From assembly GCA_964413725.1 (NCBI GenBank), contig CAYPUH010000005.1, positions 1 through 41,309 of the forward strand: a stretch of DNA of 41,309 nt. The letters run 5' to 3'. This DNA comes from an uncultured Cytophagia bacterium. GTDB taxonomy: Bacteria > Zhuqueibacterota > Zhuqueibacteria > Residuimicrobiales > Oceaniaggregativiventaceae. Positions 1 to 34,195 of the stretch are shown here, one piece after another. Made by a program: the position numbers and the translations under genes. The notes beneath the pieces are model-generated. The model was not told the origin of the DNA, searched no databases, and saw only the letters and a program-made list of their open reading frames with translations. The stretch's first letter is position 1. Every line of letters begins with the position of its first letter.

Positions 1-92
1 TTTTTATATATGTTAGTTATAGGGCCTGTTGAAAAGTGGAAAACCGTGTTTAAAGACCGAGCAAGGCTTTGAAATTATTAGGATAATCGCAT

Positions 93-399
93 TGTGAATA
101 AATCGGTGAATGATGTGAATTGGATGTTGATAAACCCGAGTAACCCACAGCCGTGAATAAGTGATATTTCCGATCATTGGTCTTCCACATTTGATTCACA
201 AGTTATCCCCCGGAAATCGACCTTTTCCACATCCAGTGTTAATAACCAAAATCCATCCAAAAACAACTGTTTTTTTATTGTTTATCACAAAGACGCTGTG
301 GATCGTGTTGATAAACTGTTGATAATGTATAAAAACACTCTTAATTTACATCGTTTTTTTATTAAAAACAATAGTCTGGTATCGTCGGTGTTATCAACA
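93..399. promoter_or_regulatory. oriC: oriC segment downstream of dnaA: DnaA-box-like 9-mers plus an AT-rich stretch (candidate DUE)
   Basis: Boxes versus TGTGGATAA/TTATCCACA: TGTGAATAA 93-101; TGTTGATAA 125-133, 306-314, 317-325; TTATCAACA 391-399; TTTTCCACA 223-231; TGTGGATCG 297-305. AT-rich run at about 326-378. No ORF is present and all minus-strand frames are closed at the left edge. Confidence 0.55.
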
Positions 400-404
400 C
401 ACGA

Positions 405-1757: not shown

Positions 1758-1795
1758 ATTTGAATCCTTTTCGCTCCGGATCTATTATTCACCAG

Positions 1796-2029
1796 TTATC
1801 AACAATCAATATATTGCGTTCTTTAACAACCAAACGTCAATAATCCAGACTTGTTTGGATTGTTCACTCTAATAGACAAGTTATCCACAACCCCTTACCA
1901 GCAAAGACAATATCTAAGGTGAGTAAATACAAGAAAGAAAAAAACAAGGGAACGATGGTTATCCACAACCCTTAATGTGGATAACTGTTTGTTTGTGGAT
2001 GGGAAAAATCCTCTCTAAAGTTATCCACA
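1796..2029. promoter_or_regulatory. oriC: oriC segment upstream of dnaA: cluster of perfect DnaA boxes
   Basis: Perfect TTATCCACA at 1881-1889, 1959-1967 and 2021-2029. Perfect TGTGGATAA at 1976-1984. TTATCAACA at 1796-1804 and TGTGGATGG at 1994-2002. Most share the extended context AGTTATCCACAA. Confidence 0.8.
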
Positions 2030-2264
2030 AATTATTACTCTAGACATCAATCTGTATCAAGTTATAGAATAGCCGTTCGAATGTCAAGTTCAAAAAAGAG
2101 TATTTAACAGCTTGTAAAGACATCCGCTAAAGCAACCTGGCAAACTGTCTTGGCTTATAAAAATCTTGCATTTTTAGATTGAATTGGTTACTTTATCAAG
2201 TTTAAAACATTAATGCCAGAGTTGATAATAGCCTGAAATCTAAACGATATATCATGAGGTGTTT

Positions 2265-2408
2265 ATGAAGCGAACATTTCAACCCAGCCGCAGAAAACGC
2301 ATCAACAAACATGGCTTCCGTGCGCGAATGGCCACCAAAAGCGGCCGCATGGTGCTTAAACGACGCCGTGCCAAAGGACGCAAACGCCTGTCTGCAAGCG
2401 ATGCCTAG
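2265..2408 (+). CDS. rpmH: 50S ribosomal protein L34
   Basis: Not in the ORF track (47 aa). ATG at 2265 gives [47 protein letters not shown], the canonical L34 sequence. GAGGTG lies 4 nt upstream. Divergent from dnaA. Confidence 0.95.
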
Positions 2409-2743
2409 TGAAACAGTTTGATCTGCCAAAATCACAGATTCTCAAAACACGAGACGAGTTTCAAAATCTGTTTCATCATGGTACTCGGCTCAAAGGACAG
2501 ACCCTTACGCTGTTCTATCTATATGATGACGATACCACAAAAATTGGATTTGCCGTTCAAAAAGGTGATGGGAACGCTGTTAAGCGTAATAAAATTAAAA
2601 GGATAATGCGGCATCTCTGGAGAACACACCGATCATCTCTTTCTCGACCGGCACATATCGTTCTCATTGGAAAACGCGGGATGCTGAAAACACCTTTTGA
2701 CTCTATGGAAGCTGAAATGGATCGGCTGTTTAAACAGATATGA
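2408..2743 (+). CDS. rnpA: ribonuclease P protein component
   Basis: 111 aa. The GTG start shares its G with the rpmH TAG stop. Basic motif AVKRNKIKRIMRH and conserved rpmH-rnpA synteny. Confidence 0.9.
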   Translation: MKQFDLPKSQILKTRDEFQNLFHHGTRLKGQTLTLFYLYDDDTTKIGFAVQKGDGNAVKRNKIKRIMRHLWRTHRSSLSRPAHIVLIGKRGMLKTPFDSMEAEMDRLFKQI

Positions 2744-2794
2744 TGGATGTTTAAATGGCCGGTTTTTCATTTTTTTGTATGGGTTGAACCCTGA

Positions 2795-3019
2795 ATGTCC
2801 GTTCAACACGTGATTAAAACTGTCTTGATCGCTTGCGTACGGTTTTATCAGCAGGCGATATCTCCTTACCTCCCGAATTCATGCCGATATGTTCCGTCTT
2901 GTTCTACATACACTATCCAAGCATTGCAGAAATACGGCATCGTGAAGGGAGGATTAAAATCCATGTATCGCGTGCTTCGCTGTAATCCGTTTTCAAAAGG
3001 AGGTCATGATCCTGCATGA
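2795..3019 (+). CDS. yidD: membrane protein insertion efficiency factor YidD
   Basis: 74 aa with [23 protein letters not shown]...[12 protein letters not shown]. Lies between rnpA and yidC. Confidence 0.9.
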
Positions 3020-3051
3020 TCGTACTGGTCATTCATTAAACCGAGAACACT

Positions 3052-9964: not shown

Positions 9965-12900
9965 ATGAGTGTTGTTAAAACCATACAAGAACGGTTGCGA
10001 GCGAGCGAGTCTTTTCAGACACTTGTAGACGCCTGTCAGGCTCGGGAAGCAGGGGCGATTTCCGGCACCGTGGGGTCGGGTCGCGCCATGGTCTGTGCTG
10101 AACTCACTCAACACCTTACCAACGACCTGATTTTCATCGAAGCGGACGAGACCGAGGCCAAACGGTTTTATGCGGATTGCAGCGCGTTGCTTCCCGAGGA
10201 TCAGGTGGTCTGGTTTCCGCCCCTCGGCAGTCGGTTCTGGGCAGAGATTGGTCCACCGCATTCGCTGGTGGGACGCCGTCTGGCCACCCTCAACGCGCTT
10301 CTCGACACGCAGACCCGTCTCGTCGTGACCTGTTCACAGGCGATTCTCGAGTGCGTTGCCTCGCCGGATGTGATGCGACAGAGTCGGCTTACCGTGCATG
10401 TGGAAGACACTCTGGATTTCGAAGCCTTTGTGACCACGCTGGTCGAAATTGGATATGTCCGGGAAGACCGGGTGGAACAGCCAGGAGAAATGAGTATACG
10501 CGGTGGACTCGTGGACGTGTACCCGTTTGACCGCATTCAACCCGTACGCATTGAATTCTTTGGTGATCAGATCGAATCCATCCGGGAAATCGAGGTGGAC
10601 ACCCAACGGTCTGTTGCCCTGCTGGGGTGCGTACAGCTGTTGCCCCTCAGCGCAGCAGGACCCTATGGACCCGCTGACGAGGAGACCACCCACCAGCTAG
10701 AGTTGACACATAGTGTGCTCGACTATCTGAATACCAACGCACATATTCTATTTGCCGACAGGCAACAGGTTTTGGACGCGTGGCAACAGAGTGAAGAACA
10801 CCTGCGCAAACGCCTGAACGAATCCGGTGTCGCAAAACCCTTTGACGCGCTGTTTACCACTGCCGACGCCCTGGCGGAGATGAGCAATCGTTTCCACCCG
10901 TTGGAATGGGTCGGGGTGCAACGGTCGCTACCCCACCTTACCCATTTCGATATGGATCCCCCGGTCAAATTCAACGGTCATCTGACGCGATTTAAAGACG
11001 AGATTCTGACTCATCAAACCCATACCACCCGGGCCGTGTTTGCCCTCTTTTGCGATTCAGAGGCTCAGACCGAACGGCTACAGTCCATACTCGACGAAGA
11101 GGGGTTTCCAGAGACGGTACGGGCATCCCATCTCAATCTGTCCACAGGGTTTCTCTGCCCGCCCCTGGCCTCTTATGTCTATACCACTCATGACCTTTAT
11201 AACCGGGTCCGATTGGTTAAAACCGATCGACTCGAATCTCGCAACGTGTCCTTTCGCGAATTGACGGAACTGAAACGAGGGGATTTTGTCGTACACAGTG
11301 ATTACGGAATCGGGCTGTATCGGGGACTCGAGCGTATCCATGCCTATGGCAAGGAGCGCGAATGCCTGGAAGTGGAATATCGAGACGGGGATAAACTCTA
11401 TGTTCCCATGGAAAAGATGGATTGCGTTCAAAAGTACAGCTCTCGAGACGGCGTCGTTCCCAGTCTCAATAAACTGGGCGGAAAAGAGTGGACTCGGCTT
11501 AAACAAAAGACCAAAAAGGACGTTAAAGAAATTGCCGACAATCTGATTAAACTCTATGCTATGCGTCAAAGCGAAACAGGGGTTGCCTTTCCCGGTGATG
11601 ACGTGTGGCAAAAGGAACTGGAGGCGTCTTTTGAATATGAGGAGACAGCCGACCAGCTTCAGGCGGCACAGGAAATAAAGAAGGATATGCAACAAGAAAC
11701 ACCCATGGATCGACTGGTCTGTGGAGATGTGGGGTTTGGCAAAACCGAGGTGGCGATCCGTGCCGCGTTTAAAGCGGTGAACAGCGGGAAACAGGTCGCG
11801 ATTCTTGTACCCACCACCGTGCTGGCACAACAACACTATGATACGTTTAAAGATCGATTAAAGCCGTATCCCATCGAAGTTGAGATGCTTTCGCGCTTTA
11901 AAAGCGCCCGTCAACAAAAGGAGATTGTCAAACGAGTTGATGCCGGTCAAGTCGACCTGGTGATCGGAACACACAGGCTATTGTCCAAAGATGTAACCTT
12001 TAAGGACCTGGGCCTGCTGATAGTGGATGAAGAACAAAAGTTCGGAGTGCTCCATAAAGAACGACTGAAACACCTTAAAACCAACGTGGATACATTGACA
12101 CTGTCTGCCACGCCCATCCCGAGAACACTGCAGATGGCACTGGTTGGCGCCCGAGACATGTCTCTTATCAATACTCCGCCCTATAATCGGCGCCCCGTCA
12201 AAACCGAAGTGGCCAGATTTGATCGCGATCTGCTGCGGGAAGTGATTCTGAGAGAAATTAATCGAGGGGGACAGGTTTTCTTTGTTCACAATCGGGTGCA
12301 GAGTATTTATGGGGTGACCTCAACATTGAGAGAATTGGTTCCTGAAGTGTCTTTTGCGGTGGCCCACGGCCAGATGCAACCACAACAACTCGAAACAATT
12401 ATGCATCGATTCTCTCACGGGGAAATCCAGTGTTTGATCAGCACCATGATTATCGAATCCGGTATCGATGTTCCAAACGCCAATACGCTTATCGTCAATC
12501 GTGCCGATCGGTTTGGATTATCACAACTCTATCAATTAAAAGGTCGGGTGGGCCGATCCAACCAACAAGCCTTTGCCTACTTTATTATACCGCCCATTAA
12601 AAAATTGAATCGCACGGCAATCAAACGACTTCAGGCGATACAGGATTATTCACACCTGGGATCCGGATATAAAATTGCCATGCGGGATCTGGAAATTCGG
12701 GGCGCCGGCAATCTTTTTGGCGCCCAGCAAAGCGGCTATATCGACGCGTTGGGATATGAGACATATACCAAAATCATTGAAGAAACCATCCAGGAAATAC
12801 AGTCAGATCAGGATCCCGAGGCCATCGAAAAGCCCTCAACCCCAGCGTTCGATCCAAAAGTTGAATGGCGGGCGGATGCCTACCTGCCGAAGACATATGT

Positions 12901-13345
12901 GCACTCTGTAGCCGAACGCGTCGATATTTATAAACGGTTGAGTGCTGCTGTATCGCGTTCCGATCTGTCTGTTCTTGCAGACGAGTTGGTGGATCGATTC
13001 GGACCTCTGCCGCAAGCCGCTCAACATCTGATAGACTATGTCGCCGTAAAGCTACTGTGCCGACAAGCCAGAATTGGTGAACTGCGAATAGAGAATAAAC
13101 GACTCACCGGCATTTTTCATCCCGAGTACTTGCCCCAGGGTGAAGAGTTTCGATCCTGGATCGCTGCATTGGTACAACAAGGGGGAGAAACCCTTCAGCT
13201 CAAACAAGAAGGAGATCAATTGCTGTTTGAAAAGCCTTTGGGTGATGAAAGCCCGGCGGATATGAGAACGATCCTCGAAGACTTGATACCGGCTGACGAT
13301 ATGGGTTCGGTACACAGCACCGAATCGCCAAAAACGCCAGGATGA
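9965..13345 (+). CDS. mfd: transcription-repair coupling factor Mfd
   Basis: Contains a UvrB-homology N-terminus, the CarD-like RID (GDFVVHSDYGIG), a superfamily-2 helicase core (GDVGFGKTEVA, DEEQKFG) and the TRCF domain. ATG 9965 lies just after the murQ stop. Confidence 0.95.
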   Translation: MSVVKTIQERLRASESFQTLVDACQAREAGAISGTVGSGRAMVCAELTQHLTNDLIFIEADETEAKRFYADCSALLPEDQVVWFPPLGSRFWAEIGPPHSLVGRRLATLNALLDTQTRLVVTCSQAILECVASPDVMRQSRLTVHVEDTLDFEAFVTTLVEIGYVREDRVEQPGEMSIRGGLVDVYPFDRIQPVRIEFFGDQIESIREIEVDTQRSVALLGCVQLLPLSAAGPYGPADEETTHQLELTHSVLDYLNTNAHILFADRQQVLDAWQQSEEHLRKRLNESGVAKPFDALFTTADALAEMSNRFHPLEWVGVQRSLPHLTHFDMDPPVKFNGHLTRFKDEILTHQTHTTRAVFALFCDSEAQTERLQSILDEEGFPETVRASHLNLSTGFLCPPLASYVYTTHDLYNRVRLVKTDRLESRNVSFRELTELKRGDFVVHSDYGIGLYRGLERIHAYGKERECLEVEYRDGDKLYVPMEKMDCVQKYSSRDGVVPSLNKLGGKEWTRLKQKTKKDVKEIADNLIKLYAMRQSETGVAFPGDDVWQKELEASFEYEETADQLQAAQEIKKDMQQETPMDRLVCGDVGFGKTEVAIRAAFKAVNSGKQVAILVPTTVLAQQHYDTFKDRLKPYPIEVEMLSRFKSARQQKEIVKRVDAGQVDLVIGTHRLLSKDVTFKDLGLLIVDEEQKFGVLHKERLKHLKTNVDTLTLSATPIPRTLQMALVGARDMSLINTPPYNRRPVKTEVARFDRDLLREVILREINRGGQVFFVHNRVQSIYGVTSTLRELVPEVSFAVAHGQMQPQQLETIMHRFSHGEIQCLISTMIIESGIDVPNANTLIVNRADRFGLSQLYQLKGRVGRSNQQAFAYFIIPPIKKLNRTAIKRLQAIQDYSHLGSGYKIAMRDLEIRGAGNLFGAQQSGYIDALGYETYTKIIEETIQEIQSDQDPEAIEKPSTPAFDPKVEWRADAYLPKTYVHSVAERVDIYKRLSAAVSRSDLSVLADELVDRFGPLPQAAQHLIDYVAVKLLCRQARIGELRIENKRLTGIFHPEYLPQGEEFRSWIAALVQQGGETLQLKQEGDQLLFEKPLGDESPADMRTILEDLIPADDMGSVHSTESPKTPG
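13305..13326. repeat. palindromic repeat, copy 1 (inside the last codons of mfd)
   Basis: GTTCGGTACACAGCACCGAATC. About 27 of 31 positions are identical to copy 2 when the flanks are included. It encodes the mfd tail ...SVHSTESP. Confidence 0.6.
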
Positions 13346-17953: not shown

Positions 17954-18631
17954 ATGAGAGCTGGAAAACAGGTTATGTGGATCTGCACGGCGGTTATATG
18001 TGGATGGGTGGTACCGTGTTTTGCTCAGCCGACAAAAAGTGCGTTCACCATCGCCCGACTCAAATACAGCGGGGGGGGGGACTGGTACAATGATCCTTCT
18101 ATGTTGCCCAATGTACAGACGTATCTGTCACGCACCACAGGAGTTGACGCTTCACGCGTGGAAGCCCGTGTGTCACCGATGGATGAACACCTCTTTGCCT
18201 ATCCGGTCTTATTCGTTACCGGACACGGGCGAATGACATTCACTGCAAAAGAGGCAGAGCGCTTGCGTACCTATTTGAGTCATGGTGGATTTCTATATGC
18301 AGATGACGATTATGGTATGGATAGCTATTTCCGGGACGCCATGAACGCGGTTTTTCCCGGAAAATCCTGGATTGAATTGCCGTATTCTCATGATATTTAT
18401 CACATCGTTTTTGATTTTTCAGATGGATTGCCCAAGATACACAAACACGATGGTGGCGCTCCTCGGGGGTATGGACTGTTTCACAAGGGTGAAATGGTAT
18501 GCTTTTATAGCTATAACACCAATATCTCGGATGGATGGGCTGACCCCGATGTACACAAAGACCCTGCCCATATTCGCGAACAGGCGTTAAAAATGGGTGT
18601 CAATATCCTCGTATATGCGATGACACACTGA
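17954..18631 (+). CDS. secreted DUF4159-like protein (GATase1-like fold family, function unknown)
   Basis: Signal peptide ...VVPCFAQ. Motifs RLKYSGGGDWYNDP, YPVLFVTGHG and LRTYLSHGGFLYADDDYG match my recollection of DUF4159. Contains a G10 tract at 18071-18080. Confidence 0.75.
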   Translation: MRAGKQVMWICTAVICGWVVPCFAQPTKSAFTIARLKYSGGGDWYNDPSMLPNVQTYLSRTTGVDASRVEARVSPMDEHLFAYPVLFVTGHGRMTFTAKEAERLRTYLSHGGFLYADDDYGMDSYFRDAMNAVFPGKSWIELPYSHDIYHIVFDFSDGLPKIHKHDGGAPRGYGLFHKGEMVCFYSYNTNISDGWADPDVHKDPAHIREQALKMGVNILVYAMTH

Positions 18632-18688
18632 TTGTTTTGATTCCGGCCGGAGACGGGAAATAACGAGTCAAGGGAACAAATCTGTATT

Positions 18689-21600
18689 ATGGTTACCAAT
18701 ACAGCATATAATCTTTTTCTTTCTAAATTAAGACGGTATCGACGCCGAATCAAGACCTACGCGGTAGTGGAGGGACTGTTGCGTCTTTTCGGATGGGCGG
18801 GGATCGTGGTCTCTCTGGCTGTGATTTTGGAGAGTCTTTTTCGTCTGTCACCGGGGCCCAGAACCGTATTGAGTGGGGTCGTGACAGTGATTGTCTCTGT
18901 ATTGACTGTATTCTTGTTATTCCGGCCTCTATGGCATCTAATTGCACAGCGACATCATCCCTCTCTCAATAGGATTGCGTTTCAAGTCGGTCTTTACTAT
19001 CAAAATGTACAGGATCGATTGGCCAACGCGCTGCAGTTGTTCGAGCGTCAGGAAACCCCCCATTCCAGGTATTCAATTCAATTGATCGCTGCTGCCCTGG
19101 AGGGTATGGCACAACGACTGAAACAGGAATCATTTACCTCTTTGATTGACCGCACACCCATTTTTCGGTCATTGCGTATTGCTGGAGCGGGGCTTGTGTT
19201 GCTGGTCGTCACCGGAGGGGGGGTTGTGCCTGTCACCCACAATGCCGTGAACCGGTTAATGCATTTTCGGACTGAATTTTCCCCAAAGCCTCTTTTGGTC
19301 TTTACGATTACACCGGGAGATACATCCGTGGTCAAGGGGTCGGACATGTCGATCCGGGGATCGGTATCGGATGCGGGGATCTCTCACGTATTGTTTCACC
19401 AGCACCAATATGATCGAGAGAAGCGCACCCGGGTCGATGCTGAGGATGGGCGATTTACAGTTCAGCTTTCCGCCCTTCAGGATACTCTCGAATACTTTTT
19501 TTCGTCCGGTTCAGAAACCTCGCCACATTTTCGTATAGATGTGTTTGGCCGGCCGATGGTGAATCGATTACAGTTACACATTTTTCCACCAGACTATTCA
19601 AGAGTACCTCCATTTGAGTTGAAGGAAAATATTGGTGATGTGAGCGCACTCAAGGGAAGCCGCATCGCCATCAAAGGAGAGACAAATAAACCTCTGAACC
19701 ACGCCAAGGTGGTGTTCGAGTCCGGCAGCGAAACCTCTCTTACAACGTCAGAGGCGTCTTTTCAGGGTGCGTTTACCCTTCAAGGGGATGATATCTATAA
19801 TATACGCCTCAAAGATCGCCATGACACCGAAAATGCGCACCCCATTGACTATCATCTACAGGTTATACCCGATCAAAAGCCGATCGTGAAAATTACACGT
19901 CCCGGCCGCGACGTGGACCTGGGAGAAGATATGCAGATTGCGCTGCAGATCAAAGCGAGCGACGATTATGGAATTTCTCGTCTTGAGTTGGGCTTTCAGC
20001 ATTTATCGCAGGGTCAAGGTGAATTCGATTTAAATGCATTTCACTATCAGCCATTAACTGGGTTTCAATCCGGAACTCAGGTGGAGATAGATAAAGTTTG
20101 GAACTTTGAGGAGATGGATCTGTTTCCCAAGGATGTTGTCTATTATCATGTTCGTGCCTATGACTCTGATACCATATCCGGGCCCAAAGTTGCGACGAGT
20201 CAGGTTTTTCGGATTCGCTTTCCCTCGATCTACGAGATCTATAAAGAAGTTGCATATGAACAGGAAAATGTGCTTCAACAGATGGAATCGGTGCATGAAC
20301 AGGGCAAGGAGCATCGAGCCAGTATTGAGCAATTGGCCAGAGAACTCAAACGCTCTCAAACCGAAGTTGATTGGCAAAAACAGCAAGAGGTAAAGGAGAC
20401 CATTGAGCAGGGGGAGAGTCAGGAGGAGCAACTATCCGATTTGAGTCAAAAACTGGATGCAATGGTGGAGCAGATGGAGCGCCATCAGTTGCTTTCCGAG
20501 GAGACATTACAGAAATACGATCAGCTTCAGGACTTGGTACAGGAGATCATGACTCCGGAATTGCGTGAGACCCTTCGCGAGATGCGGGAAGCGATCGAAC
20601 AGGTGGATAGAGAGCAGCTCCAGGAGGCAATGGAAACGCTCAAACTCGACGAGAAAGAATTTCAGCGCAACCTCGACCGGGCCATCTCGTTGTTCAAACG
20701 ACTTAAAATGGAGCAAAAACTGGATCAGTCGATCAAAATGACGCAAAATCTGGAAACCCGTCAACGTCAGATCGAAGAAAAGGCGGTGAACGAAGGGGTG
20801 CAAGAGGAATCGGTTCAGTGGGAACAGGAAACGATCCAACAAGATTCGAAACAGCTGGATTCGTTAGTGACGGAATTAACTGACGAGATGCAGGACGATC
20901 CCTCCATGCCACAGGCGGAACTTTCGGATGCACAAAAGGAGATGCAGCAGATTAGTAAAGCGCTTTCAGAGTTGGTCCAAAAGGCTCGACAAAACCAGGC
21001 CGATTCATACAAGGAAACAAGCCAGAAAACCCGCTCTCACCTGGAGCAGATGATAACAAAACTGGAACAAGCCAAGGATAGACTGACGGGAGAACAGAAT
21101 CGGAAGGCCCAGCTCGCGATGAAGCGGGGGATGCGGGATCTGTTGCAGCTCTCTCACAGCCAGGAAAAGACTTCAAAAGCACTAAAGGAAGCTCCTACAA
21201 ACGGACCGCATATGTCAGAGCTCGCGGATCAGCAGAACAATTTGGCGAGCGGACTGGAACGCGTTATGAATCAGCTGTTTAACGCATCACGAAGCAGTTT
21301 CAGAATTCAGCCTCAGCTTGCCAAAGCTATGGCCGATGCTCACCGTGCCATGCGGAACGTGCTTGAAAACATGAGTGAGCGCGATTATGGCAAGGCGAGA
21401 CAAGCTCAGCAGACAGCTCTCTCCGGACTCAACGCCGCCATTTATCAGATGATGCAATCCATGAATCAACAGGGTATGGGAAGCCAGGGCGGGATGAGTT
21501 TTGAGGATTTTATGCAACAGATGCAAAAACTCAGTCAATCCCAGCAGTCGATCAATCAACAGACCCGGGGAATGCAACAGGGTATGTCACAGTCTATGGC

Positions 21601-22057
21601 ACAGCAGGCGGCCATGTCCCGATTGATGCGAGGGCAACAGAGTCTGCGAAAATCGTTGGAGCAGTTGGCGCGTGAAGCTCAATCCATGTCCAATCTTCTC
21701 GGGGATCTGGGACAAATCGGCAAGGATATGAAGGCGGTGGAGGAAGACCTGGCCAACCGGCAGGTGACTCCGGAGACACTTGACCGTCAACAACGCATCT
21801 TATCGAGAATGCTCGATGCTCAGAAATCCATTCACAAACGGGAATACAGTCGACAGCGACAGGCAGAGACGGCAGAAGGGTTTACTCGACCATCCTCTCC
21901 CAGGGCGTTTTCACTGTCCGGTAAAACGTCGAGCCAACTCGAGGAGGATTTGCTGCGAGCCAAGCGTCAGGGATTCAGCCGCGACTATCTGGATCTGATT
22001 AAACGATATTATGAGGCCATTTCAAATTCAAATGAAACTGCATCCACAAACAACTAG
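18689..22057 (+). CDS. 1122-aa membrane-anchored coiled-coil protein, DUF4175-like
   Basis: Two N-terminal TM helices, a beta-rich region (about aa 200-520), about 550 aa of E/Q/K-rich coiled coil, a Q/M-rich low-complexity stretch, and the C-terminal motif QQRILSRMLDAQKSIHKREYSRQRQ. The CDS call is strong. The family assignment is from memory. Confidence 0.75.
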   Translation: MVTNTAYNLFLSKLRRYRRRIKTYAVVEGLLRLFGWAGIVVSLAVILESLFRLSPGPRTVLSGVVTVIVSVLTVFLLFRPLWHLIAQRHHPSLNRIAFQVGLYYQNVQDRLANALQLFERQETPHSRYSIQLIAAALEGMAQRLKQESFTSLIDRTPIFRSLRIAGAGLVLLVVTGGGVVPVTHNAVNRLMHFRTEFSPKPLLVFTITPGDTSVVKGSDMSIRGSVSDAGISHVLFHQHQYDREKRTRVDAEDGRFTVQLSALQDTLEYFFSSGSETSPHFRIDVFGRPMVNRLQLHIFPPDYSRVPPFELKENIGDVSALKGSRIAIKGETNKPLNHAKVVFESGSETSLTTSEASFQGAFTLQGDDIYNIRLKDRHDTENAHPIDYHLQVIPDQKPIVKITRPGRDVDLGEDMQIALQIKASDDYGISRLELGFQHLSQGQGEFDLNAFHYQPLTGFQSGTQVEIDKVWNFEEMDLFPKDVVYYHVRAYDSDTISGPKVATSQVFRIRFPSIYEIYKEVAYEQENVLQQMESVHEQGKEHRASIEQLARELKRSQTEVDWQKQQEVKETIEQGESQEEQLSDLSQKLDAMVEQMERHQLLSEETLQKYDQLQDLVQEIMTPELRETLREMREAIEQVDREQLQEAMETLKLDEKEFQRNLDRAISLFKRLKMEQKLDQSIKMTQNLETRQRQIEEKAVNEGVQEESVQWEQETIQQDSKQLDSLVTELTDEMQDDPSMPQAELSDAQKEMQQISKALSELVQKARQNQADSYKETSQKTRSHLEQMITKLEQAKDRLTGEQNRKAQLAMKRGMRDLLQLSHSQEKTSKALKEAPTNGPHMSELADQQNNLASGLERVMNQLFNASRSSFRIQPQLAKAMADAHRAMRNVLENMSERDYGKARQAQQTALSGLNAAIYQMMQSMNQQGMGSQGGMSFEDFMQQMQKLSQSQQSINQQTRGMQQGMSQSMAQQAAMSRLMRGQQSLRKSLEQLAREAQSMSNLLGDLGQIGKDMKAVEEDLANRQVTPETLDRQQRILSRMLDAQKSIHKREYSRQRQAETAEGFTRPSSPRAFSLSGKTSSQLEEDLLRAKRQGFSRDYLDLIKRYYEAISNSNETASTNN

Positions 22058-23843
22058 ATGGGCGATTGCGAACCTGATCCTTTTATCGGTTCTGTTGAGT
22101 AATGGTTTCGGACAGGTTCGTGATCATGCCATTGATAAAAGACGTCTGGCCATCCACTATGAACGCACGGGTGACTATGACCGGGCAGCGCAATACTATA
22201 CAGAGATCAGCTTGAGAAATCCCAAAGACATCTCCAGTTATCTCGGTGCCAAACGATGTCTGATTCAACTCGATGCGTTGGAACGATTCAGGGACCTGAT
22301 TCTATCTTTGCAGACGCAACGACGGGATCTACGCTATCAGGTGGATTTGATTGATATCGAGTATCGAAACGGACAAACCAGACAGGCTGTTGAGAAATGG
22401 AACACATTGCTGGACCAACATCGGCAAAATCAGACAGCCTATCAATTGATTGGCTCGGTATTGACCGAACACCGACGCTTTGAGGACGCTCTTTCGGTTT
22501 ATGAGGAGGGCCGGGAACACCTTGACAATCCCCACGTGTTTTTGTTTGAGCGTATCGGTATTTTGACCGCCCAACAACAGTATAAAAAAATTATTCATGA
22601 ATATATTGACTATCTGGCACGTCATCCCGGTCAACAGGCATTTATCGATTCAAGAATTCTCTCCCTGTGCCAGAATGATGAAATATCAAATACCATTGCA
22701 ACGGTTTTGGAAGACGAGTATGAGGATCGTCGCTCCATACGTTCACGGATTGGTCGAATACGAACCCGTGTTTATATCCGAATGGGATTGTACCATCGGG
22801 CGATCAATATGGTGGAAACATTGTCGGCCTCTGATGAGACCTATCGGGCCCGGGCGGACGAGCGGTATCTACAGATTGCAAACAGTGCTGCCCGGAACAG
22901 GGTGCTCAGCGAAGCTCGTCTTGCCTACAACAAGCTGTTGACCTTCAGCCCTGAAAGTGATCTGGCATTGCAGGCCCATTTTGGGCTGGCAGAGATCTAT
23001 GAACAGGAGGGAAAATTCGAGGCCGCCATCCGCGCCTACCTGACTCTGGCCAGTGAACATCCGCAGAGCGTACAGGCGGTGAAAGGGTTATATCGGTGCG
23101 GAATTCTGAATTTACAACAGGTGTTTGATCTGGATCGTGCCAGAAGATGTTTCCAGAGACTTTTGGATCAATATCCAAACAGCAGCTATCGGACGGATAC
23201 GCTCTTTCGGCTCTCAGAGGTCGCCATTGCCCAGGGCAACCTTGGACTCGCACATGAAACCCTGCGACAGCTCAACCGTGAAGGGGATAAAAATCGCAAT
23301 CAGGTACGCCTGATGCAGGCCTATGTTTCCTTATATCAGGGAAAGATTTCGGACTGTCGCCAAAGATTGAACGACATCCTGGAACCGGAATCCATCGATC
23401 TAAAGGATGAAACCATAAATAATGCGCTTGAACTCAAGATTCTCATCGATTCAGCTGCGGATTCTGCTACACTCGATCTTTATGGCAAGGCCCGGTTTTA
23501 TCGGGATCAACACCGATATAAAGAGGCACTTAAAGTGCTCAATACGGCCCTAGAGAACCACAATGGGCATGTAACGGAAGCACTGCTATGGTTGAGAAGC
23601 GACCTGTATATTGAGCAACAACAGTATGGTTATGCCCTTGAGGACCTGACCGTGCTCGAGAAAAACGAGAACGGTCTTTACCGTGAACAAGCTATGAAAC
23701 GAAGAGCCGAACTCTATGCGACCGTTCTGGAAGATGCGGGAAAAGCCGTCGATATTTATCTGCATTATCTCAACGAGTTTCCCCAAAGCATTCATCTGGA
23801 GTCGGTCCGCAAACGCATTCGTGAACTGGACGCGAACACTTGA
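22011..23843 (+). CDS. secreted tetratricopeptide-repeat protein
   Basis: 610 aa with signal peptide ...ANLILLSVLLSNGFGQ and many TPR-like helices. The start is 22011 or 22032. Either overlaps the preceding gene by 47 or 26 nt. Confidence 0.8.
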   Translation: MRPFQIQMKLHPQTTRWAIANLILLSVLLSNGFGQVRDHAIDKRRLAIHYERTGDYDRAAQYYTEISLRNPKDISSYLGAKRCLIQLDALERFRDLILSLQTQRRDLRYQVDLIDIEYRNGQTRQAVEKWNTLLDQHRQNQTAYQLIGSVLTEHRRFEDALSVYEEGREHLDNPHVFLFERIGILTAQQQYKKIIHEYIDYLARHPGQQAFIDSRILSLCQNDEISNTIATVLEDEYEDRRSIRSRIGRIRTRVYIRMGLYHRAINMVETLSASDETYRARADERYLQIANSAARNRVLSEARLAYNKLLTFSPESDLALQAHFGLAEIYEQEGKFEAAIRAYLTLASEHPQSVQAVKGLYRCGILNLQQVFDLDRARRCFQRLLDQYPNSSYRTDTLFRLSEVAIAQGNLGLAHETLRQLNREGDKNRNQVRLMQAYVSLYQGKISDCRQRLNDILEPESIDLKDETINNALELKILIDSAADSATLDLYGKARFYRDQHRYKEALKVLNTALENHNGHVTEALLWLRSDLYIEQQQYGYALEDLTVLEKNENGLYREQAMKRRAELYATVLEDAGKAVDIYLHYLNEFPQSIHLESVRKRIRELDANT

Positions 23844-23970
23844 GTTCGAAAGTCGAGACAAACCACCGAATCTCCACCCCATGAGTGAAGGTAACCGGAC
23901 ACGGAAGATGCAAAGAGCCGGTTTGGGGCTGGTTTGTAAACAAACAATACGAGGACGCGTACAAAACTGT

Positions 23971-25248
23971 ATGAGAGTATTATTGACACGATTTTGTTTT
24001 TGGGTACTGTTGGGTATATTTCTGACCCCGGTGATCAGCTGTGGACAAAAGCTTCTGGTGTACATGGATTTGCAGCAAACCGATCACCTCAAAGCCTATG
24101 GAGTGGCCTATCACGCACTTGATCGTGGCCATACGGTGGAGTGGCTTTTAAACTACCGTGGTGGTTCGTTTCTGATGGATTTTTCTGCCCGTCTAGAGCG
24201 AAAGATGAAGATTCGTGGTGTTGCCTATTCGGTGATTGATGGCTCGGCGGTATCACAGATCTATTCAGTGATCGAGCAGGAGAATATGGACGTGGTGCTA
24301 CTGGAAAAAGTGCCGACCATCTCCATCTACGCCCCGCCCAACAAGCAAGCTTGGGACGATGCCGTGATGCTGGCGCTGGATTATGCGGAAATTCCCTATT
24401 CCACGCTGTGGGATGAGGAGGTGTTGAGGGGAGACTTGCAAAAGTATGACTGGTTGCATCTACACCATGAGGATTTTACAGGACAATACGGAAAGTTTTA
24501 TGCCAACTATCGTCATACCGATTGGTATCAGGATGAGGTGAAAAAGAATGAACAGATGGCGGCCAAGCTCGGGTTCAACAAGGTGTCGGAACTGAAAAAG
24601 GCTGTGGCGTTATCCATTCGCGACTATGTGGCGCAGGGAGGTTTTTTATTTGCCATGTGCTCGGCTACGGATACATTTGATATGGCTTTGGCGGCCTTGA
24701 AACTCGATATCTGTGCCTCTCCGTTCGATGGTGATTCTCCGGATCCCAATGTCAATCAGAACCTCGACTATGCTCCGTGTCTTGCCTTTCAGGGATTTCA
24801 ATTGGTGATGGACCCTATGGTATATGAATATAGTGATATCGACATACCACCCAGCTATGCGGCTCCGCTTCAGGGACCGGAAGCTGAATATTTTACGCTA
24901 TTTGCATTTTCAGCTAAATATGATCCGGTTCCGACCATGCTGACTCAAAATCACGTCTCCGCGGTAAAGGGGTTTATGGGACAGACGACAGGTTTCCGTC
25001 GTTCCTTGATCAAGAAAACTGCGGTAATCATGGGTGAGGCTGAGGGAACCGGACAGGTCAAATATCTTCATGGTAATGAAGGGCGGGGAACCTTTACCTT
25101 TTTGGGTGGGCACGATCCCGAAGACTATCAACATTATGTCAATGACCCTCCAACGCAACTCTCTCTTTATCGAAATTCGCCGGGTTATCGCTTGATATTA
25201 AACAACATCTTGTTTCCGGCAGCAAAAAAGAAAAAGCTAAAAACCTAG
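23971..25248 (+). CDS. lipoprotein with a GATase1-like (DJ-1/ThuA-like) core. I recall homologues being labelled asparagine synthetase B without support.
   Basis: ATG 23971 gives MRVLLTRFCFWVLLGIFLTPVISC (lipobox VISC). Motifs LVYMDLQQTDHLKAYGVAY, YDWLHLHHEDFTGQYGKF and GGFLFAMCSATD (Cys at a nucleophile-elbow-like position). Confidence 0.7.
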   Translation: MRVLLTRFCFWVLLGIFLTPVISCGQKLLVYMDLQQTDHLKAYGVAYHALDRGHTVEWLLNYRGGSFLMDFSARLERKMKIRGVAYSVIDGSAVSQIYSVIEQENMDVVLLEKVPTISIYAPPNKQAWDDAVMLALDYAEIPYSTLWDEEVLRGDLQKYDWLHLHHEDFTGQYGKFYANYRHTDWYQDEVKKNEQMAAKLGFNKVSELKKAVALSIRDYVAQGGFLFAMCSATDTFDMALAALKLDICASPFDGDSPDPNVNQNLDYAPCLAFQGFQLVMDPMVYEYSDIDIPPSYAAPLQGPEAEYFTLFAFSAKYDPVPTMLTQNHVSAVKGFMGQTTGFRRSLIKKTAVIMGEAEGTGQVKYLHGNEGRGTFTFLGGHDPEDYQHYVNDPPTQLSLYRNSPGYRLILNNILFPAAKKKKLKT

Positions 25249-25357: not shown

Positions 25358-25759
25358 ATGACGGTAAAAGAAATCACCATCAAAACAGGCTCAAGACACC
25401 AATATGTCAATATAGATCAGCACGTGCAACGTTATATTGATGAATCCGGATTGGAAGAAGGACTGTGTGTTTTGTTTGTGCCTCACACCACGGCAGGTAT
25501 CACCATCAACGAAAATGCGGATCCCGATGTGGTGAAGGATATTCAAAGCAAGCTTGACCGCGACATCCCTCGGAATGACCACTATCGTCACCGGGAAGGC
25601 AATTCGGACGCACACATCAAATCGTCTCTGATCGGTCCCTCATTGACCCTTGTCGTCCAAAACGCACACCCCTTCCTGGGCACCTGGCAATCTGTATATT
25701 TTTGTGAATTTGATGGTCCTCGAACCCGACGACTCATTTTAAAGGCGATTCCTGATTGA
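25358..25759 (+). CDS. yjbQ: YjbQ/UPF0047 family protein (secondary thiamine-phosphate synthase-like)
   Basis: 133 aa with LFVPHTTAGITINENADPDV, NSDAHIKSSLIG and LGTWQSVYFCEFDGPR. Confidence 0.85.
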   Translation: MTVKEITIKTGSRHQYVNIDQHVQRYIDESGLEEGLCVLFVPHTTAGITINENADPDVVKDIQSKLDRDIPRNDHYRHREGNSDAHIKSSLIGPSLTLVVQNAHPFLGTWQSVYFCEFDGPRTRRLILKAIPD

Positions 25760-31489: not shown

Positions 31490-32176
31490 ATGGCTAAAGG
31501 CTCGAATGTAAAGCCAAAAGGGTCGATCATCTACAAGTTGTTGATCGTGATTTTGGGTGCTGCATTGATTTTCAGCATTGTGTATCCCCAGCAGCAGTGG
31601 GATAAAGAAGAGGCCAACACCAAAAAATGCCGCCAAAACATGAACCACATTTTGTATGCAGAACTCGTATATCTGGTCGAAAACAACACCTATACCGATA
31701 CCCTTGACAACGTTGTGGAGATGTTCGATCAAGACACCACCGGTCGACTTCTCAGACAATTTGCCAACCTTGATTCGATTCTGGCGGATAAAATCTTTGC
31801 GGAATTGAAATCGGATACTTTGGCAAAATCGATCATCGACTCACTGAAACGCTTCGGTTTCCAGCGTGATTTGGATACAACCAATGCCTTGATACTGGAT
31901 TCATTGCGGGTTCATGAAGGATTCGCTCAATTTATTGATTCCATGGCAATGCACGAGCTTTATCAGATGTATGAATGTCCGACGGTGAACGCACCCTACA
32001 TGATTTCGGTTGTTGACACATCGGTGATAAAAGAGCTGTATATTAAATGTCCGATTGATTCTTTGGATAGTCTTGCGGTCGAAAATGATTTCATGCTGGA
32101 CAACCTAGCGGGTCTGAAAATTTCCAACCATGGCGCCATAGAGAATGGTGAGACTAGCTGGGAGGAAGAAAAGTAG
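31490..32176 (+). CDS. hypothetical membrane-anchored protein with a pilin-like N-terminal architecture
   Basis: AGGAGG RBS. KGSIIYKLLIVILGAALIFSIVYP is followed by KKCRQNMNHILYAELVYLVENNTY, which resembles post-helix pilin/pseudopilin segments. It lacks the GFTLxE cleavage motif (Lys at +5). Confidence 0.55.
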   Translation: MAKGSNVKPKGSIIYKLLIVILGAALIFSIVYPQQQWDKEEANTKKCRQNMNHILYAELVYLVENNTYTDTLDNVVEMFDQDTTGRLLRQFANLDSILADKIFAELKSDTLAKSIIDSLKRFGFQRDLDTTNALILDSLRVHEGFAQFIDSMAMHELYQMYECPTVNAPYMISVVDTSVIKELYIKCPIDSLDSLAVENDFMLDNLAGLKISNHGAIENGETSWEEEK

Positions 32177-32210
32177 CATAGTCAATTTGTCCAATTAGGC
32201 GGGGTATAGA

Positions 32211-33173
32211 ATGACGACATCAGGAGGCGAACATTTTTTCGGTCTCAATATTGTTGGTCGACGGCTTAAAGGGGTTGAGGCCGAACAACATTTGGATCAA
32301 ATTGGCATAAAGGCGGTAGCCGAAACAACATTAACGGTTCCCCTTGATCTCAACGTGGTCAAGCATGAAGAGGTTGTCGCACAGTATGCAGATGCGATCA
32401 ATAAATTGTTGCAAGAAAAATCCATTCATGCAACCGCAGCGCGCTTTGCTCTGGATCGTCGTCTCGTCCTGATGAAAACGGTACAATTGGACAGAGGCCT
32501 GTCGGATCGTCAAATCCAAGACCAGATCGAATGGGAAACAGAGCAGTTGTTGATTGCTCCCCGCATGGAATTCAATGTGGGCGTGGAATCTCTGGGTTCT
32601 CACTATGGACAACAAGATGTTTATTTAATTACAGCGGTGCGGAAGCAGGTTGTTTCCTTTCTGCGAGATGTCTTTGTGCGAACGCCGTTAACTCTCTCCG
32701 TCATTGACGTGGATGTGTTGGCGGCTGTTCGTGGATTACAGGGAAATAGTAAACGACGGCCAGAGACGCTTGCAGCTTTGGTCGATTTTAATGACTTTGG
32801 TATCGATTTTACCCTTGTCCGGGAAGGACGGTTTCTCTGCTCCAGCGAGATCTCTTCCGTTAGAGAGGGCGAAGGAGAGAACAATTCCAAACAGGTTGCC
32901 AAAGTGATCAGTGATGAACTTTCCCATCTCCTTGAAAGTGTAAAAGACGATCTTCTTCCCGCTTCCTATGATAGCATTTATCTGTCTGGCGACAAAGCAG
33001 AGGTGGAAATCATTCCCCATCTTCAAGGCATGCAAAAGACAGCCGATATTCGATTTGCAGATCCCTTCAGCAGTTTCAATCTGTTTTTCGAGGCAGAATC
33101 CGATCCATTGATAAAAAACAAGCCCGAGAAATTTATCGTAACTGCAGGTATGGTAATTACTTTGGAAGATTAG
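32211..33173 (+). CDS. PilM-like actin-fold protein, degenerate nucleotide-binding motifs
   Basis: The block pattern resembles PilM: LVLMKTVQLDRGLSDRQIQDQIEWETEQLL, VYLITAVRKQVVSFLRDVF...LSVIDVDVLAAVRGL and LAALVDFNDFGIDFTLV. LNIVGRRLK replaces DIGSSSIK. Confidence 0.5.
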   Translation: MTTSGGEHFFGLNIVGRRLKGVEAEQHLDQIGIKAVAETTLTVPLDLNVVKHEEVVAQYADAINKLLQEKSIHATAARFALDRRLVLMKTVQLDRGLSDRQIQDQIEWETEQLLIAPRMEFNVGVESLGSHYGQQDVYLITAVRKQVVSFLRDVFVRTPLTLSVIDVDVLAAVRGLQGNSKRRPETLAALVDFNDFGIDFTLVREGRFLCSSEISSVREGEGENNSKQVAKVISDELSHLLESVKDDLLPASYDSIYLSGDKAEVEIIPHLQGMQKTADIRFADPFSSFNLFFEAESDPLIKNKPEKFIVTAGMVITLED

Positions 33174-33196
33174 TTGCATTCAATAAAGGGGTCTAG

Positions 33197-34195
33197 ATGA
33201 ATTTATTAGAGGATTATCGGGAACAAGGTGTCTCTCAAGGCGAGTTTGAGCCACCGCGACCGCAACAGCCCATCCAAACAGACGATCTTGAACCTCCAAC
33301 CGTAGCACCCCCTTCAATGTCCGGTTATGATCCGTATAGCAAGCGGAAAAAATCTTCTCTTATGCCATTTGTGCTGATTGTTGTCTTGGTTGCTGTTGTG
33401 GGGGGATTGGCGTATTGGGGGTTGTTTCGGGATGATACCGATTTGGACCAGTTGTTGGAACCCGGGTCGGAAGCCACCATAACTGAAACCGAATCATCTC
33501 AACCCGAGGATGAAACCCGTGTCGAGCAGGAACCTGTAGAATCGACACAGACTCCTGAAGAGATGGCTCAACAACCGTCAAGACCTGAACCGACAGCCGC
33601 AAGTCGACCTAAAAGTCCGATCCCGAGTCGACCCGGCGGCGATCAGGGTCTGGCTCAGCTTCACACATGGATGGGATCGGTTCTTGATGCCTTGCCACAG
33701 CAGGTGACTCTGTCTACGCTTATCATGGACGAATCCTCCTTTTCCGTTGAAGTGACAGCGGAAAGACGGGCCCAGCTGGAACTTTATTTTACCAACCTTA
33801 AAGAGAGTATGGGCGAGTCCCTCTCCATGGCCCCCTCACCGGGAACCGGCGTGGAGGCCAGAGCCCTGATCACCAACGTTTTTGAGATCGACTCTTCGCC
33901 GCCCATGAGTGCAGGCCAAAACGCATCGTCTCTGCTTCAGACATTGCGTGAACAGGCCACCTCTTTTAATCTGGCCGTGCAGGAAAGCACGATCGGCCAG
34001 GAAATACAGGTGTCGGGGCGCAAAAAGATGCCTTTGTTTTTCAAAGTGTTGGGGCCTACATCTCAATGCCGTGAGTTCCTCGGAAGTGTGGCACAGCAAA
34101 ACTATCCCATTGCCATCTCGAAATTAATTTTGATGCCCAAAACATTACAGCAAGCTGAATTTGTCCTGCGTTTTGAATTGGTAACGGCCCTGTGA
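33197..34195 (+). CDS. bitopic membrane protein, possible PilN/PilO-like fusion
   Basis: One TM helix (LMPFVLIVVLVAVVGGLAYWGLF), a P/E/S/T/Q-rich linker and a roughly 190-aa C-terminal alpha/beta region. Position is directly after the PilM-like gene. The assignment is inferential. Confidence 0.4.
   Translation: MNLLEDYREQGVSQGEFEPPRPQQPIQTDDLEPPTVAPPSMSGYDPYSKRKKSSLMPFVLIVVLVAVVGGLAYWGLFRDDTDLDQLLEPGSEATITETESSQPEDETRVEQEPVESTQTPEEMAQQPSRPEPTAASRPKSPIPSRPGGDQGLAQLHTWMGSVLDALPQQVTLSTLIMDESSFSVEVTAERRAQLELYFTNLKESMGESLSMAPSPGTGVEARALITNVFEIDSSPPMSAGQNASSLLQTLREQATSFNLAVQESTIGQEIQVSGRKKMPLFFKVLGPTSQCREFLGSVAQQNYPIAISKLILMPKTLQQAEFVLRFELVTAL

Follow-up and report, generated by a model that had tools for sequence, protein, structure and literature searches.

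The window analysed here is a stretch of 41,309 nucleotides from an uncultured Cytophagia bacterium (contig CAYPUH010000005.1 of assembly GCA_964413725.1), and at its centre there is a module of four consecutive genes, g1 to g4, which code for a DUF4159 protein, a DUF4175 protein, a tetratricopeptide repeat (TPR) protein and a further protein with an export signal. The listing of open reading frames (ORFs) gave the four genes at the coordinates reported in a preliminary description of this DNA (Table 1) and reproduced their spacing, with 57 nucleotides between g1 and g2, an overlap of 47 nucleotides between g2 and g3, and 127 nucleotides between g3 and g4. The N-terminal sequences quoted there were also read in the translations, being ...VVPCFAQ in g1, ...SNGFGQ in g3 and ...VISCGQ in g4. 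The longest ORF of g4 begins at 23716; the homologues begin at a signal peptide starting with MK or MR, which leads to the start at 23971. The closest relatives of the four products are encoded in metagenome-assembled genomes (MAGs) of candidate division KSB1 and Calditrichota, and a protein identical to g1 is encoded on a MAG contig at NCBI (GCA_054922275.1).

Table 1. Coordinates of the four genes and of the features recognised in their products (window numbering).
Feature	Position	Strand	Description	Basis
g1	17954..18631	+	DUF4159 protein, 225 amino acids, predicted to be exported
g1 signal peptide, MRAGKQVMWICTAVICGWVVPCFA-Q	17954..18028	+	hydrophobic segment at residues 6-25	hydrophobic N-terminal leader common to homologues
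g1 motif SHGGFLYADDDYG	18278..18316	+	residues 109-121, strand and elbow
g2	18689..22057	+	DUF4175 protein, predicted in inner membrane, 1122 amino acids
g2 TM1 and TM2	18761..18934	+	transmembrane helices, residues ~25-50 and ~58-82	hydropathy, alignment
g2 loop	18935..19174	+	predicted cytoplasmic, ~80 residues, conserved NALQL motif	alignment; topology predicted
g2 TM3	19175..19243	+	transmembrane helix, residues ~163-185	hydropathy 2.13
g2 beta-rich region	19260..20245	+	residues ~190-520, possibly Ig-like	G/P/S-rich composition
g2 helical region	20246..21838	+	long, Q/E-rich, residues ~520-1050	composition
g3	22011..23843	+	all-TPR protein with signal peptide, 610 amino acids
g4	23971..25248	+	425 amino acids, predicted to be exported, no Pfam or NCBIfam family
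g4 DWLHLHHEDFTGQ	24448..24486	+	invariant, residues 160-172, end of central strand	alignment
g4 motif GGFLFAMCSATD		+	residues 223-234	sequence
g4 Cys230 codon	24658..24660	+	putative nucleophile, A-M-C-S-A, between strand 225-229 and helix 232-241
g4 His381-Asp382-Pro383-Glu384 codons	25111..25122	+	directly after strand 373-378

The product of g1 is matched by the whole DUF4159 profile of Pfam (PF13709, positions 1-202 of 202) with an E-value of 2.6e-60 and 203.9 bits, the cutoff being 25.9. Its AlphaFold2 (AF2) model had a predicted local distance difference test score (pLDDT) of 90 and showed a helix (residues 123-133) coming after a strand (residues 113-118). In Foldseek this model superposed with PDB entry 4i66 (E=5e-14, TM-scores of 0.73 and 0.82, root mean square deviation of 2.8 Å), which was also found by sequence (E=2.4e-6). 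The entry is Hoch_4089, a DUF4159 protein from structural genomics and the one member of its family with a solved structure, 23% identical to g1 and likewise without an assigned function. The next structural matches were glutamine amidotransferase (GATase) domains, ThuA-like proteins and IFT52-N; on the basis of structure, Pfam has assigned DUF4159, GATaseI_like (PF07090), ThuA and GH42M to a common clan (PMC4702930). Among the residues of g1 that are invariant in the alignment of homologues there are D117, D118, D119, H91, H163 and H165. The search of NCBIfam returned no match for g1, g2 or g4.

The DUF4175 profile of Pfam (PF13779) is matched by residues 274-935 of g2 (E=1.9e-31, 109.4 bits for a cutoff of 27.3), only positions 177-754 of its 825 being covered, and homologues of about 1100-1150 amino acids were seen across phyla. 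A basic stretch, KLRRYRRRIK, precedes the first transmembrane (TM) helix and suggests that the N-terminus would be cytoplasmic. The preliminary description had assigned two TM helices to g2, a number that has to be raised to three, since the third segment was recognised by hydropathy and is hydrophobic in 12 of the 12 homologues aligned; with three helices, the C-terminal part of about 930 residues (~190-1122) is predicted to be periplasmic. A weak match to Big_7, below the cutoff, falls within the beta-rich region of this part (residues 207-236). Further on, residues 501-800 contain 13-25 Gln, up to 18 Glu and only 1-3 Gly plus Pro per 100 amino acids, and a stretch rich in Gln, Met, Ser and Gly at residues 901-1000, with 25 Gln, is followed by a better conserved C-terminus. 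DUF4175 proteins begin with TM helices and continue outside the cytoplasm with a long Gln-rich region of low complexity, and g2 fits this description with its three TM segments and its Gln-rich blocks (up to 25 Gln per 100 amino acids). Among PDB sequences nothing relevant was found for g2, the only match being tektin, a chance one of coiled-coil type, and PADLOC gave only LmuB, by chance and of the same type, so that the module was ruled out as a known defence system. In two loci of Flavobacteriia a DUF4175-like gene for 1126-1131 amino acids stands alone between gltX and ybeY-mnmG (L084, 10001-13396; L088, 10001-13381), and no DUF4159, TPR, g4 or MoxR gene lies within 10 kb of it.

Several TPR families of Pfam are matched by g3, with E-values down to 1e-23, and the TPR gene typical of loci of the Bat/MoxR type is in this respect present. 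In NCBIfam only TPR look-alikes under threshold were obtained for g3 (PrsT, YbgF, BamD and PorW/SprE), with scores far below the cutoffs, and the protein was discarded on these scores as an orthologue of PorW, BamD or CpoB.

No family of Pfam or NCBIfam was assigned to g4 at E<=0.1, PADLOC gave no match, and searches of PDB with the single sequence and with a profile returned nothing relevant. The family is nevertheless large: it comprises more than 8000 clusters at 90% identity, with a few dozen full-length representatives at 50%, and g4 was confirmed in at least 595 species-representative genomes. Conservation was evaluated in 71 homologues carrying more than 10 phylum labels, where 110 of the 425 positions are at least 97% identical. 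The AF2 model (pLDDT 70, predicted TM-score 0.74) gave 21 Foldseek matches with E<=1e-3, mostly GATase1-like, among them STM3548 (2gk3), lin1909 (3fij) and the middle domains of GH42 enzymes; STM1381 (3soz), SpuA and ThuA (1t0b) came further down, with E-values between 1.6e-3 and 5.5e-3. The TM-scores were 0.43-0.46 on small targets. Judging from these models, g1 and g4 would both adopt a class-I GATase-like fold, as had been proposed from a motif common to them. Both forms of the motif, SHGGFLYADDDYG in g1 and GGFLFAMCSATD in g4, are present as quoted, and the common stretch, R-x-Y-x-x-x-GGFL-x-A, occupies in both models the corresponding strand that leads into the elbow; taken by itself, the shared motif is a weak signal.

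The elbow of g4 holds C230, which is conserved in all 71 sequences and is the only invariant Cys of the protein. At the aligned position of g1 there is the invariant Asp118, and no Cys nucleophile is found at its elbow, so the expectation that only the last protein of the module keeps this Cys was borne out. The H381, D382 and E384 residues of g4 are likewise invariant (71 of 71 each) in the context GGHDPED, and this H-D-P-E sequence sits where class-I amidotransferases have H-P-E; pLDDT is below 50 at residues 383-399 of the model. A segment at residues 295-338 is an insert that is invariant and also modelled with low confidence. By comparison with class-I GATases and clan-PC hydrolases (SpuA/PuuD-type peptidase C26, 7d4r; lin1909, 3fij; PabA), g4 has the same predicted fold, the Cys at the strand-helix elbow and the His...Glu after the penultimate strand; it differs in being exported, in an additional N-terminal alpha/beta subdomain (~27-111), in an invariant insert of about 100 residues, in having HDPE instead of HPE, and in the absence of sequence similarity at the profile level. 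The GGG/GGF-L strand motif is also found in the PF07090 proteins of the MoxR-linked clusters considered below, in the form GGGLLMLGG, which has no Cys and places a Gly at the nucleophile position. Considering that the elbow is occupied by Asp118 in g1 and by Gly in PF07090, g4 is the only member with an apparently intact nucleophile set, and the alignment together with the model indicates that it is probably a cysteine enzyme.

As for the attachment of g4, the preliminary description took it for a lipoprotein. The VISC sequence at residues 21-24 agrees with the lipobox pattern [LVI][ASTVI][GAS]C and is shared with a homologue 95% identical (P0001), which favours this assignment for the window protein; it does not extend to the family, where 2 of 71 sequences show a lipobox-like pattern and the remaining members carry ordinary signal-peptidase-I sites ending in A/G-Q. 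The C-terminal tail (25213-25248) is basic and invariant, ...LFPAA(K/R)KKxxKT-COOH, with the terminal K-T in at least 97% of the 71 sequences, and it could be a tail that binds the membrane or a partner, or a sorting signal. At NCBI the homologues of g4 bear the name asparagine synthetase B. That enzyme consists of an Ntn-type class-II amidotransferase domain and an Asn_synthase PP-loop domain, has about 550 amino acids and is cytoplasmic; g4 has no detectable AsnB domain, 425 amino acids, a signal peptide and a class-I-like fold, and the name was rejected as a misannotation propagated over thousands of MAG proteins. A deamidation of the Gln-rich tail of g2 by g4 was considered and set aside for absence of specific support; tails of this kind also occur, according to the description of TIGR02302, in DUF4175 proteins of lineages that have no g4.

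The conservation of the module was followed in 80 loci around homologues of g4, in which ORFs were called and clustered and the window proteins were mapped; taxa are named here as the MAG records label them. The four-gene order that the preliminary description had singled out is kept on one strand in MAGs of KSB1, Neomarinimicrobiota, Latescibacterota, Krumholzibacteriota, Eisenbacteria and Gemmatimonadota/Gemmatimonadetes, and also in several unclassified bins. Among the loci that offer 7 kb or more upstream, about 49 in number, 16 had the full order, to which are added contigs that end inside the module and where only its distal part is visible. Median gaps across the loci were 23 nucleotides for g1-g2, -8 for g2-g3 and 7 for g3-g4, overlaps of 4 nucleotides being frequent (e.g., L082 and L015). 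Identity to the homologues was 55-76% for g4, 38-55% for g1, 15-40% for g2 and 21-33% for g3. The more general unit is the g3-g4 pair, a homologous TPR gene of about 600-650 amino acids being located upstream of g4 in 44 loci. Calditrichota-like loci present the order lepA-lepB-hemW-g3-g4-yjbQ, and in Ignavibacteria-like and some Bacteroidota loci the order is g3-clpX-g4-FAH, downstream of dxr and rseP. One locus with the full order (L007), on a contig of 626 kb, is labelled uncultured Lentisphaeria, of the Planctomycetes-Verrucomicrobia-Chlamydiae (PVC) group; this could reflect a module that reaches outside the Fibrobacteres-Chlorobi-Bacteroidetes (FCB) group, or a wrong label on the bin.

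Regarding the immediate flanks, the three genes 5' of g1 are, as previously described, peptidyl-prolyl isomerases (PPIases) of the parvulin/SurA type according to Pfam, and the last of them ends 31 nucleotides upstream of g1. It had been suggested that they chaperone the module. PPIase genes were found 5' of g1 only in KSB1-like contigs, and the 80 loci from other species gave no PPIase match at all, for which reason their link to the module was rejected as a conserved feature. On the other side, a UPF0047/YjbQ gene (25358-25759) starts 109 nucleotides after g4. A yjbQ gene is directly 3' of g4 in 10 loci, namely the window and L001, L004, L008, L010, L017, L024, L033, L038 and L042, labelled KSB1, Calditrichaceae, Neomarinimicrobiota and FCB group, the rest being unclassified; as a neighbour of g4 it is more widely conserved than the PPIases. 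The clpX gene (418 amino acids) separates g4 from the TPR gene in L022, L023, L028, L031, L035, L037, L039, L040, L047, L056 and L060, and in these Ignavibacteria-like and Bacteroidota loci a gene of the FAH family is often found 3' of g4.

A key aspect of the module is its relation to the clusters of MoxR, DUF58 and von Willebrand factor A (vWA)/BatA genes. The partnership of DUF4159 and DUF4175 with these genes, to which the preliminary description had pointed, is real, as judged from the contexts of distant g2 homologues. An Isosphaeraceae locus (L089) has the order TPR/Peptidase_MA_2-DUF4159-MoxR-DUF58-BatA/VWA-DUF4175-GATase1_like, followed by a gene for 327 amino acids, and a Gemmatimonadaceae locus (L086) has the same eight genes in rotated order; other contigs show DUF4175-TPR/Peptidase_MA_2-MoxR, or MoxR-DUF58/BatA...DUF4175-like-DUF4159. 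As in the window, DUF4159, DUF4175, TPR and GATase1-like genes lie on one strand in the canonical clusters L089 and L086, and DUF4175 is a membrane protein of about 1100-1250 amino acids. The window differs from them in having no MoxR, DUF58 or BatA/VWA gene and no gene for about 320 amino acids, in a TPR gene that lacks Peptidase_MA_2, and in the location of DUF4159 directly before DUF4175. Moreover, the canonical GATase1_like product is a double-anchored membrane protein of about 780 amino acids without the Cys, whereas g4 is secreted, has 425 amino acids and carries an invariant Cys-His. The PF07090 protein of L086 matches by sequence 3soz and 2gk3, which rank 24 and 2 among the Foldseek matches of g4.

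The absence of MoxR, DUF58 and vWA/BatA genes from the 41 kb of the window, which are among the defining genes of a locus of the Bat/MoxR type, was verified with Pfam on the large ORFs and with six-frame tblastn, using as queries the MoxR, DUF58 and BatA/VWA proteins of L085 and L086 against the window and all loci. The same MoxR queries (two proteins) do find MoxR in four Latescibacterota loci (L014, L020, L053 and L066), where it follows g4 on the same strand, accompanied by DUF58 in two of them. The genes g1 to g4 of these loci are orthologous to those of the window and have the same order, with identities in L066 of 50% for g1, 27% for g2, 25% for g3 and 59% for g4; MoxR begins about 35-120 nucleotides past g4, in the place where the window has UPF0047/YjbQ. 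In L066, g4 (9992-11254) is followed by MoxR (11375-12382, AAA_3 with E=6e-62), by DUF58 (12414-13322, E=7e-49) and then by unrelated suf genes. MoxR lies about 35 nucleotides past g4 in L014 and L020, and in L053 both MoxR and DUF58 come after one inserted gene. The insert of L053 (11258-12700) codes for a HEAT-repeat/PhyH (dioxygenase-like) protein of 480 amino acids.

Loci of this type are known, widespread and uncharacterised, and they belong to the same broad class as the Bat loci of Bacteroides and the cmd loci of Rhizobium. The Bat operon and cmdA-D of Rhizobium leguminosarum (RL3499-RL3502) resemble the window as envelope-associated multi-gene loci with TPR and membrane proteins, and differ from it in their defining parts, MoxR, DUF58, the vWA proteins BatA/BatB and BatD, none of which is in the window. 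We presume that cmdC and cmdD contain regions similar to BatA_N/DUF4159 and to DUF4175. Mutants have been described with defects of the envelope and morphology (cmd) and with sensitivity to oxidative and heat stress (Bat), and the authors of these works indicate that no definite function is known (PMC5700661, PMC3893208, PMC11834572). In the searchable literature on Bat, cmd and MoxR there is no mention of DUF4159, DUF4175 or the g4 family in that context, and no paper on DUF4159, DUF4175 or PF07090 was found there except the Pfam clan note and one on the unrelated AdvA of Acinetobacter.

Considering that the canonical clusters already hold a TPR and a GATase1_like gene beside DUF4159 and DUF4175, the module looks like their half without the ATPase. 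The explanation that we prefer, with a probability of about 0.5, is that g1 to g4 form one operon which corresponds to the periplasm-facing, non-ATPase half of a MoxR(MRP)-DUF58-BatA/VWA-DUF4159-DUF4175-TPR-GATase1-like cluster, unlinked here from the ATPase genes. The evidence favours a version proper to the FCB lineages in which the secreted Cys-His protein g4 takes the place of the membrane-anchored PF07090 protein without Cys, the equivalence being limited to position and fold. The analysis shows to which families and folds the proteins belong, which gene order is kept, which residues do not vary and how the module connects with MoxR clusters; beyond that we infer a scheme for the orientation of the products, the complex that they would form, its catalysis and substrate, and its role in the cell. 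The DUF4175 protein would be inserted in the inner membrane by its three TM helices, with a cytoplasmic loop of about 80 residues and about 930 residues in the periplasm, where a beta-rich section would be continued by a long helical stalk rich in Gln and Glu. The products of g1, g3 and g4 would be exported by Sec; the DUF4159 protein, with Asp in place of the nucleophilic Cys, and the TPR protein would act as adaptors on the stalk. The only catalytically competent subunit would then be g4, a putative Cys230-His381-Glu384 amidohydrolase or transferase of the class-I amidotransferase/clan-PC peptidase type, whose substrate may be an amide or a peptide of the envelope. A cytoplasmic MoxR-DUF58 pair would act by way of the cytoplasmic loop of DUF4175 to assemble the complex or to remodel it; the genes of this pair lie beside the module in Latescibacterota and are presumed to be located elsewhere in the present genome. 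By analogy with the Bat and cmd mutants, the role could be one of envelope integrity or stress tolerance.

Several observations weigh against this reading. MoxR, DUF58 and vWA genes were detected by tblastn neither in the window nor, within 10 kb to each side, in 76 of the 80 related loci, and a need for MoxR is proposed by extrapolation from a single phylum and the canonical clusters. The g3-g4 pair occurs with no g1-g2 nearby in loci of Ignavibacteria, Bacteroidota and Calditrichota. The canonical TPR gene codes for a Peptidase_MA_2 domain that g3 lacks, and tblastn gave no match between the two. The model of g4 is moderate (pLDDT 70), with TM-scores on the query of 0.25-0.29 and a His/Glu loop of low confidence. 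When the g1 and g4 families were compared with hhalign only 16 columns were aligned (E=6.7e-4, probability 27%), and between g4 and the PF07090 protein the probability was 0.06%, that is, no detectable sequence homology; a common ancestry of g1, g4 and PF07090 is for this reason not demonstrable by sequence, and g4 is the counterpart of the canonical GATase1_like protein by analogy of fold and position only. Finally, none of the four families has been the subject of an experiment in the searchable literature.

The preliminary description suggested that the module may be a self-contained system of scaffold or assembly that spans the periplasm. On this view it would have no need of MoxR, KSB1, Marinimicrobia and related phyla would have dispensed with the ATPase, and its adjacency in Latescibacterota would be secondary. 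The same scarcity of MoxR, DUF58 and vWA genes in the window and around g4 speaks for this, as do the neighbours upstream of g1 and downstream of g4, which differ from one phylum to another around four genes that remain adjacent, and the prediction that the four products are extracytoplasmic or in the membrane, MoxR being cytoplasmic. We nevertheless consider it somewhat unlikely. A MoxR gene on the same strand adjoins g4 in the four Latescibacterota loci, and DUF58 does so in two; the MoxR clusters of Planctomycetota, Gemmatimonadota and other contigs include DUF4159 and DUF4175; and the conserved cytoplasmic loop of g2 would have no obvious role if there were no cytoplasmic partner. Of the self-contained system, the lack of MoxR, DUF58 and vWA genes in the window stands, and the independence from them is weakened by the Latescibacterota loci and the canonical clusters.

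Another explanation separates the module into two independent units which happen to be neighbours, a DUF4159-DUF4175 pair of the Bat/MoxR type and a TPR-g4 pair with a core housekeeping reaction of the FCB envelope that has nothing to do with MoxR systems. It would account for the g3-g4 pairs that lack g1-g2, which represent about two thirds of the loci with enough upstream sequence, and for their location among housekeeping genes (lepA-lepB-hemW in Calditrichota-like loci, dxr-rseP...clpX in Ignavibacteria-like ones), for the DUF4175-like gene alone between gltX and ybeY in Flavobacteriia, and for a g4 which is far more conserved than g1, g2 or g3. Against it, overlaps of stop and start codons tie g2 to g3 and g3 to g4 in many phyla, the canonical MoxR clusters combine TPR and GATase1-like genes with DUF4159 and DUF4175, and MoxR in Latescibacterota comes after g4 and not after g2, so that we hold two separate units to be unlikely. 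With the same reserve we propose that g4 may define a periplasmic amidohydrolase or transferase with a catalytic cysteine which has so far gone unrecognised and which nearly all of the FCB group would possess. It would work with its TPR partner, docked in many phyla on a DUF4159/DUF4175 stalk, and would catalyse an FCB-specific core reaction of envelope maturation independent of MoxR; the MoxR-linked clusters would be a derived and regulated version of this machine. If this tentative proposal were true, the reaction could involve, for example, peptidoglycan stem peptides, amides of lipids or lipoproteins, or Gln-rich envelope proteins.

The possibility that g4 is a non-catalytic structural pseudoenzyme, like the GH42 middle domain, ThuA-like proteins or PF07090, whose conservation reflects binding interfaces and whose Cys230 senses redox state or binds metal, appears doubtful to us, for although its nearest structures are mostly non-catalytic GATase-like domains (GH42M, STM3548, ThuA-like), its invariant H39, H163, H165, H166, E167, D168, H328 and H388 could bind metal and its long, invariant, low-confidence insert 295-338 resembles a partner-binding segment, the small-x-Cys-x-small elbow after a strand and the His-x-x-Glu after the penultimate strand are both invariant and in canonical positions, and it is exactly those Cys, His and Glu residues that the pseudoenzyme relatives have lost.

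In the rest of the window, dnaA (405-1757, - strand) is followed by yidC, mnmE, mnmG, rsmG and mfd. Clusters of DnaA boxes are located on both sides of dnaA, with four perfect TTATCCACA boxes and one near match at 1796-2029 and six boxes with one mismatch at 93-399; the matches total 19, for 10.1 ± 3.1 in shuffled sequences. The GC content of the first 2 kb is low (0.41), and yidC, mnmE, mnmG and rsmG come next. The window is probably origin-proximal, with the chromosomal origin at 1-3050. Downstream of the module there are a methyltransferase gene, ftsE, ftsX, hrcA, grpE and dnaJ. A PilM_2-like gene (32211-33173) lies between ORFs for 228 and 332 amino acids with no Pfam match (31490-34195); this group of three is followed by rsmD and is kept in the KSB1 locus L001 as clusters c53-c56. 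The scan for sigma-70 promoters and intrinsic terminators between 13.3 and 26.6 kb gave the same counts as shuffled sequences and was uninformative on operon boundaries, and no Rfam family and no tRNAs were found in the window.

Clusters of the MoxR/Bat/cmd type are very widespread and their mutants have envelope and stress phenotypes, and their mechanism is not known. With this module the extracytoplasmic half of one of them is available on its own. In the form found in the FCB lineages this half has one component with an apparently intact and invariant Cys-His-Glu set, the other GATase-like members being pseudoenzymes, and g4 is in this sense a biochemical handle, as a small soluble protein with one nucleophile and a defined set of partners. 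Once the canonical clusters have been seen the module is unsurprising; what it exposes is a large, unnamed and very strongly conserved family, probably of enzymes, and many MAGs would be better annotated if it had a curated model and its name were corrected. It is in addition a tractable way into the envelope systems of the MoxR/Bat type.

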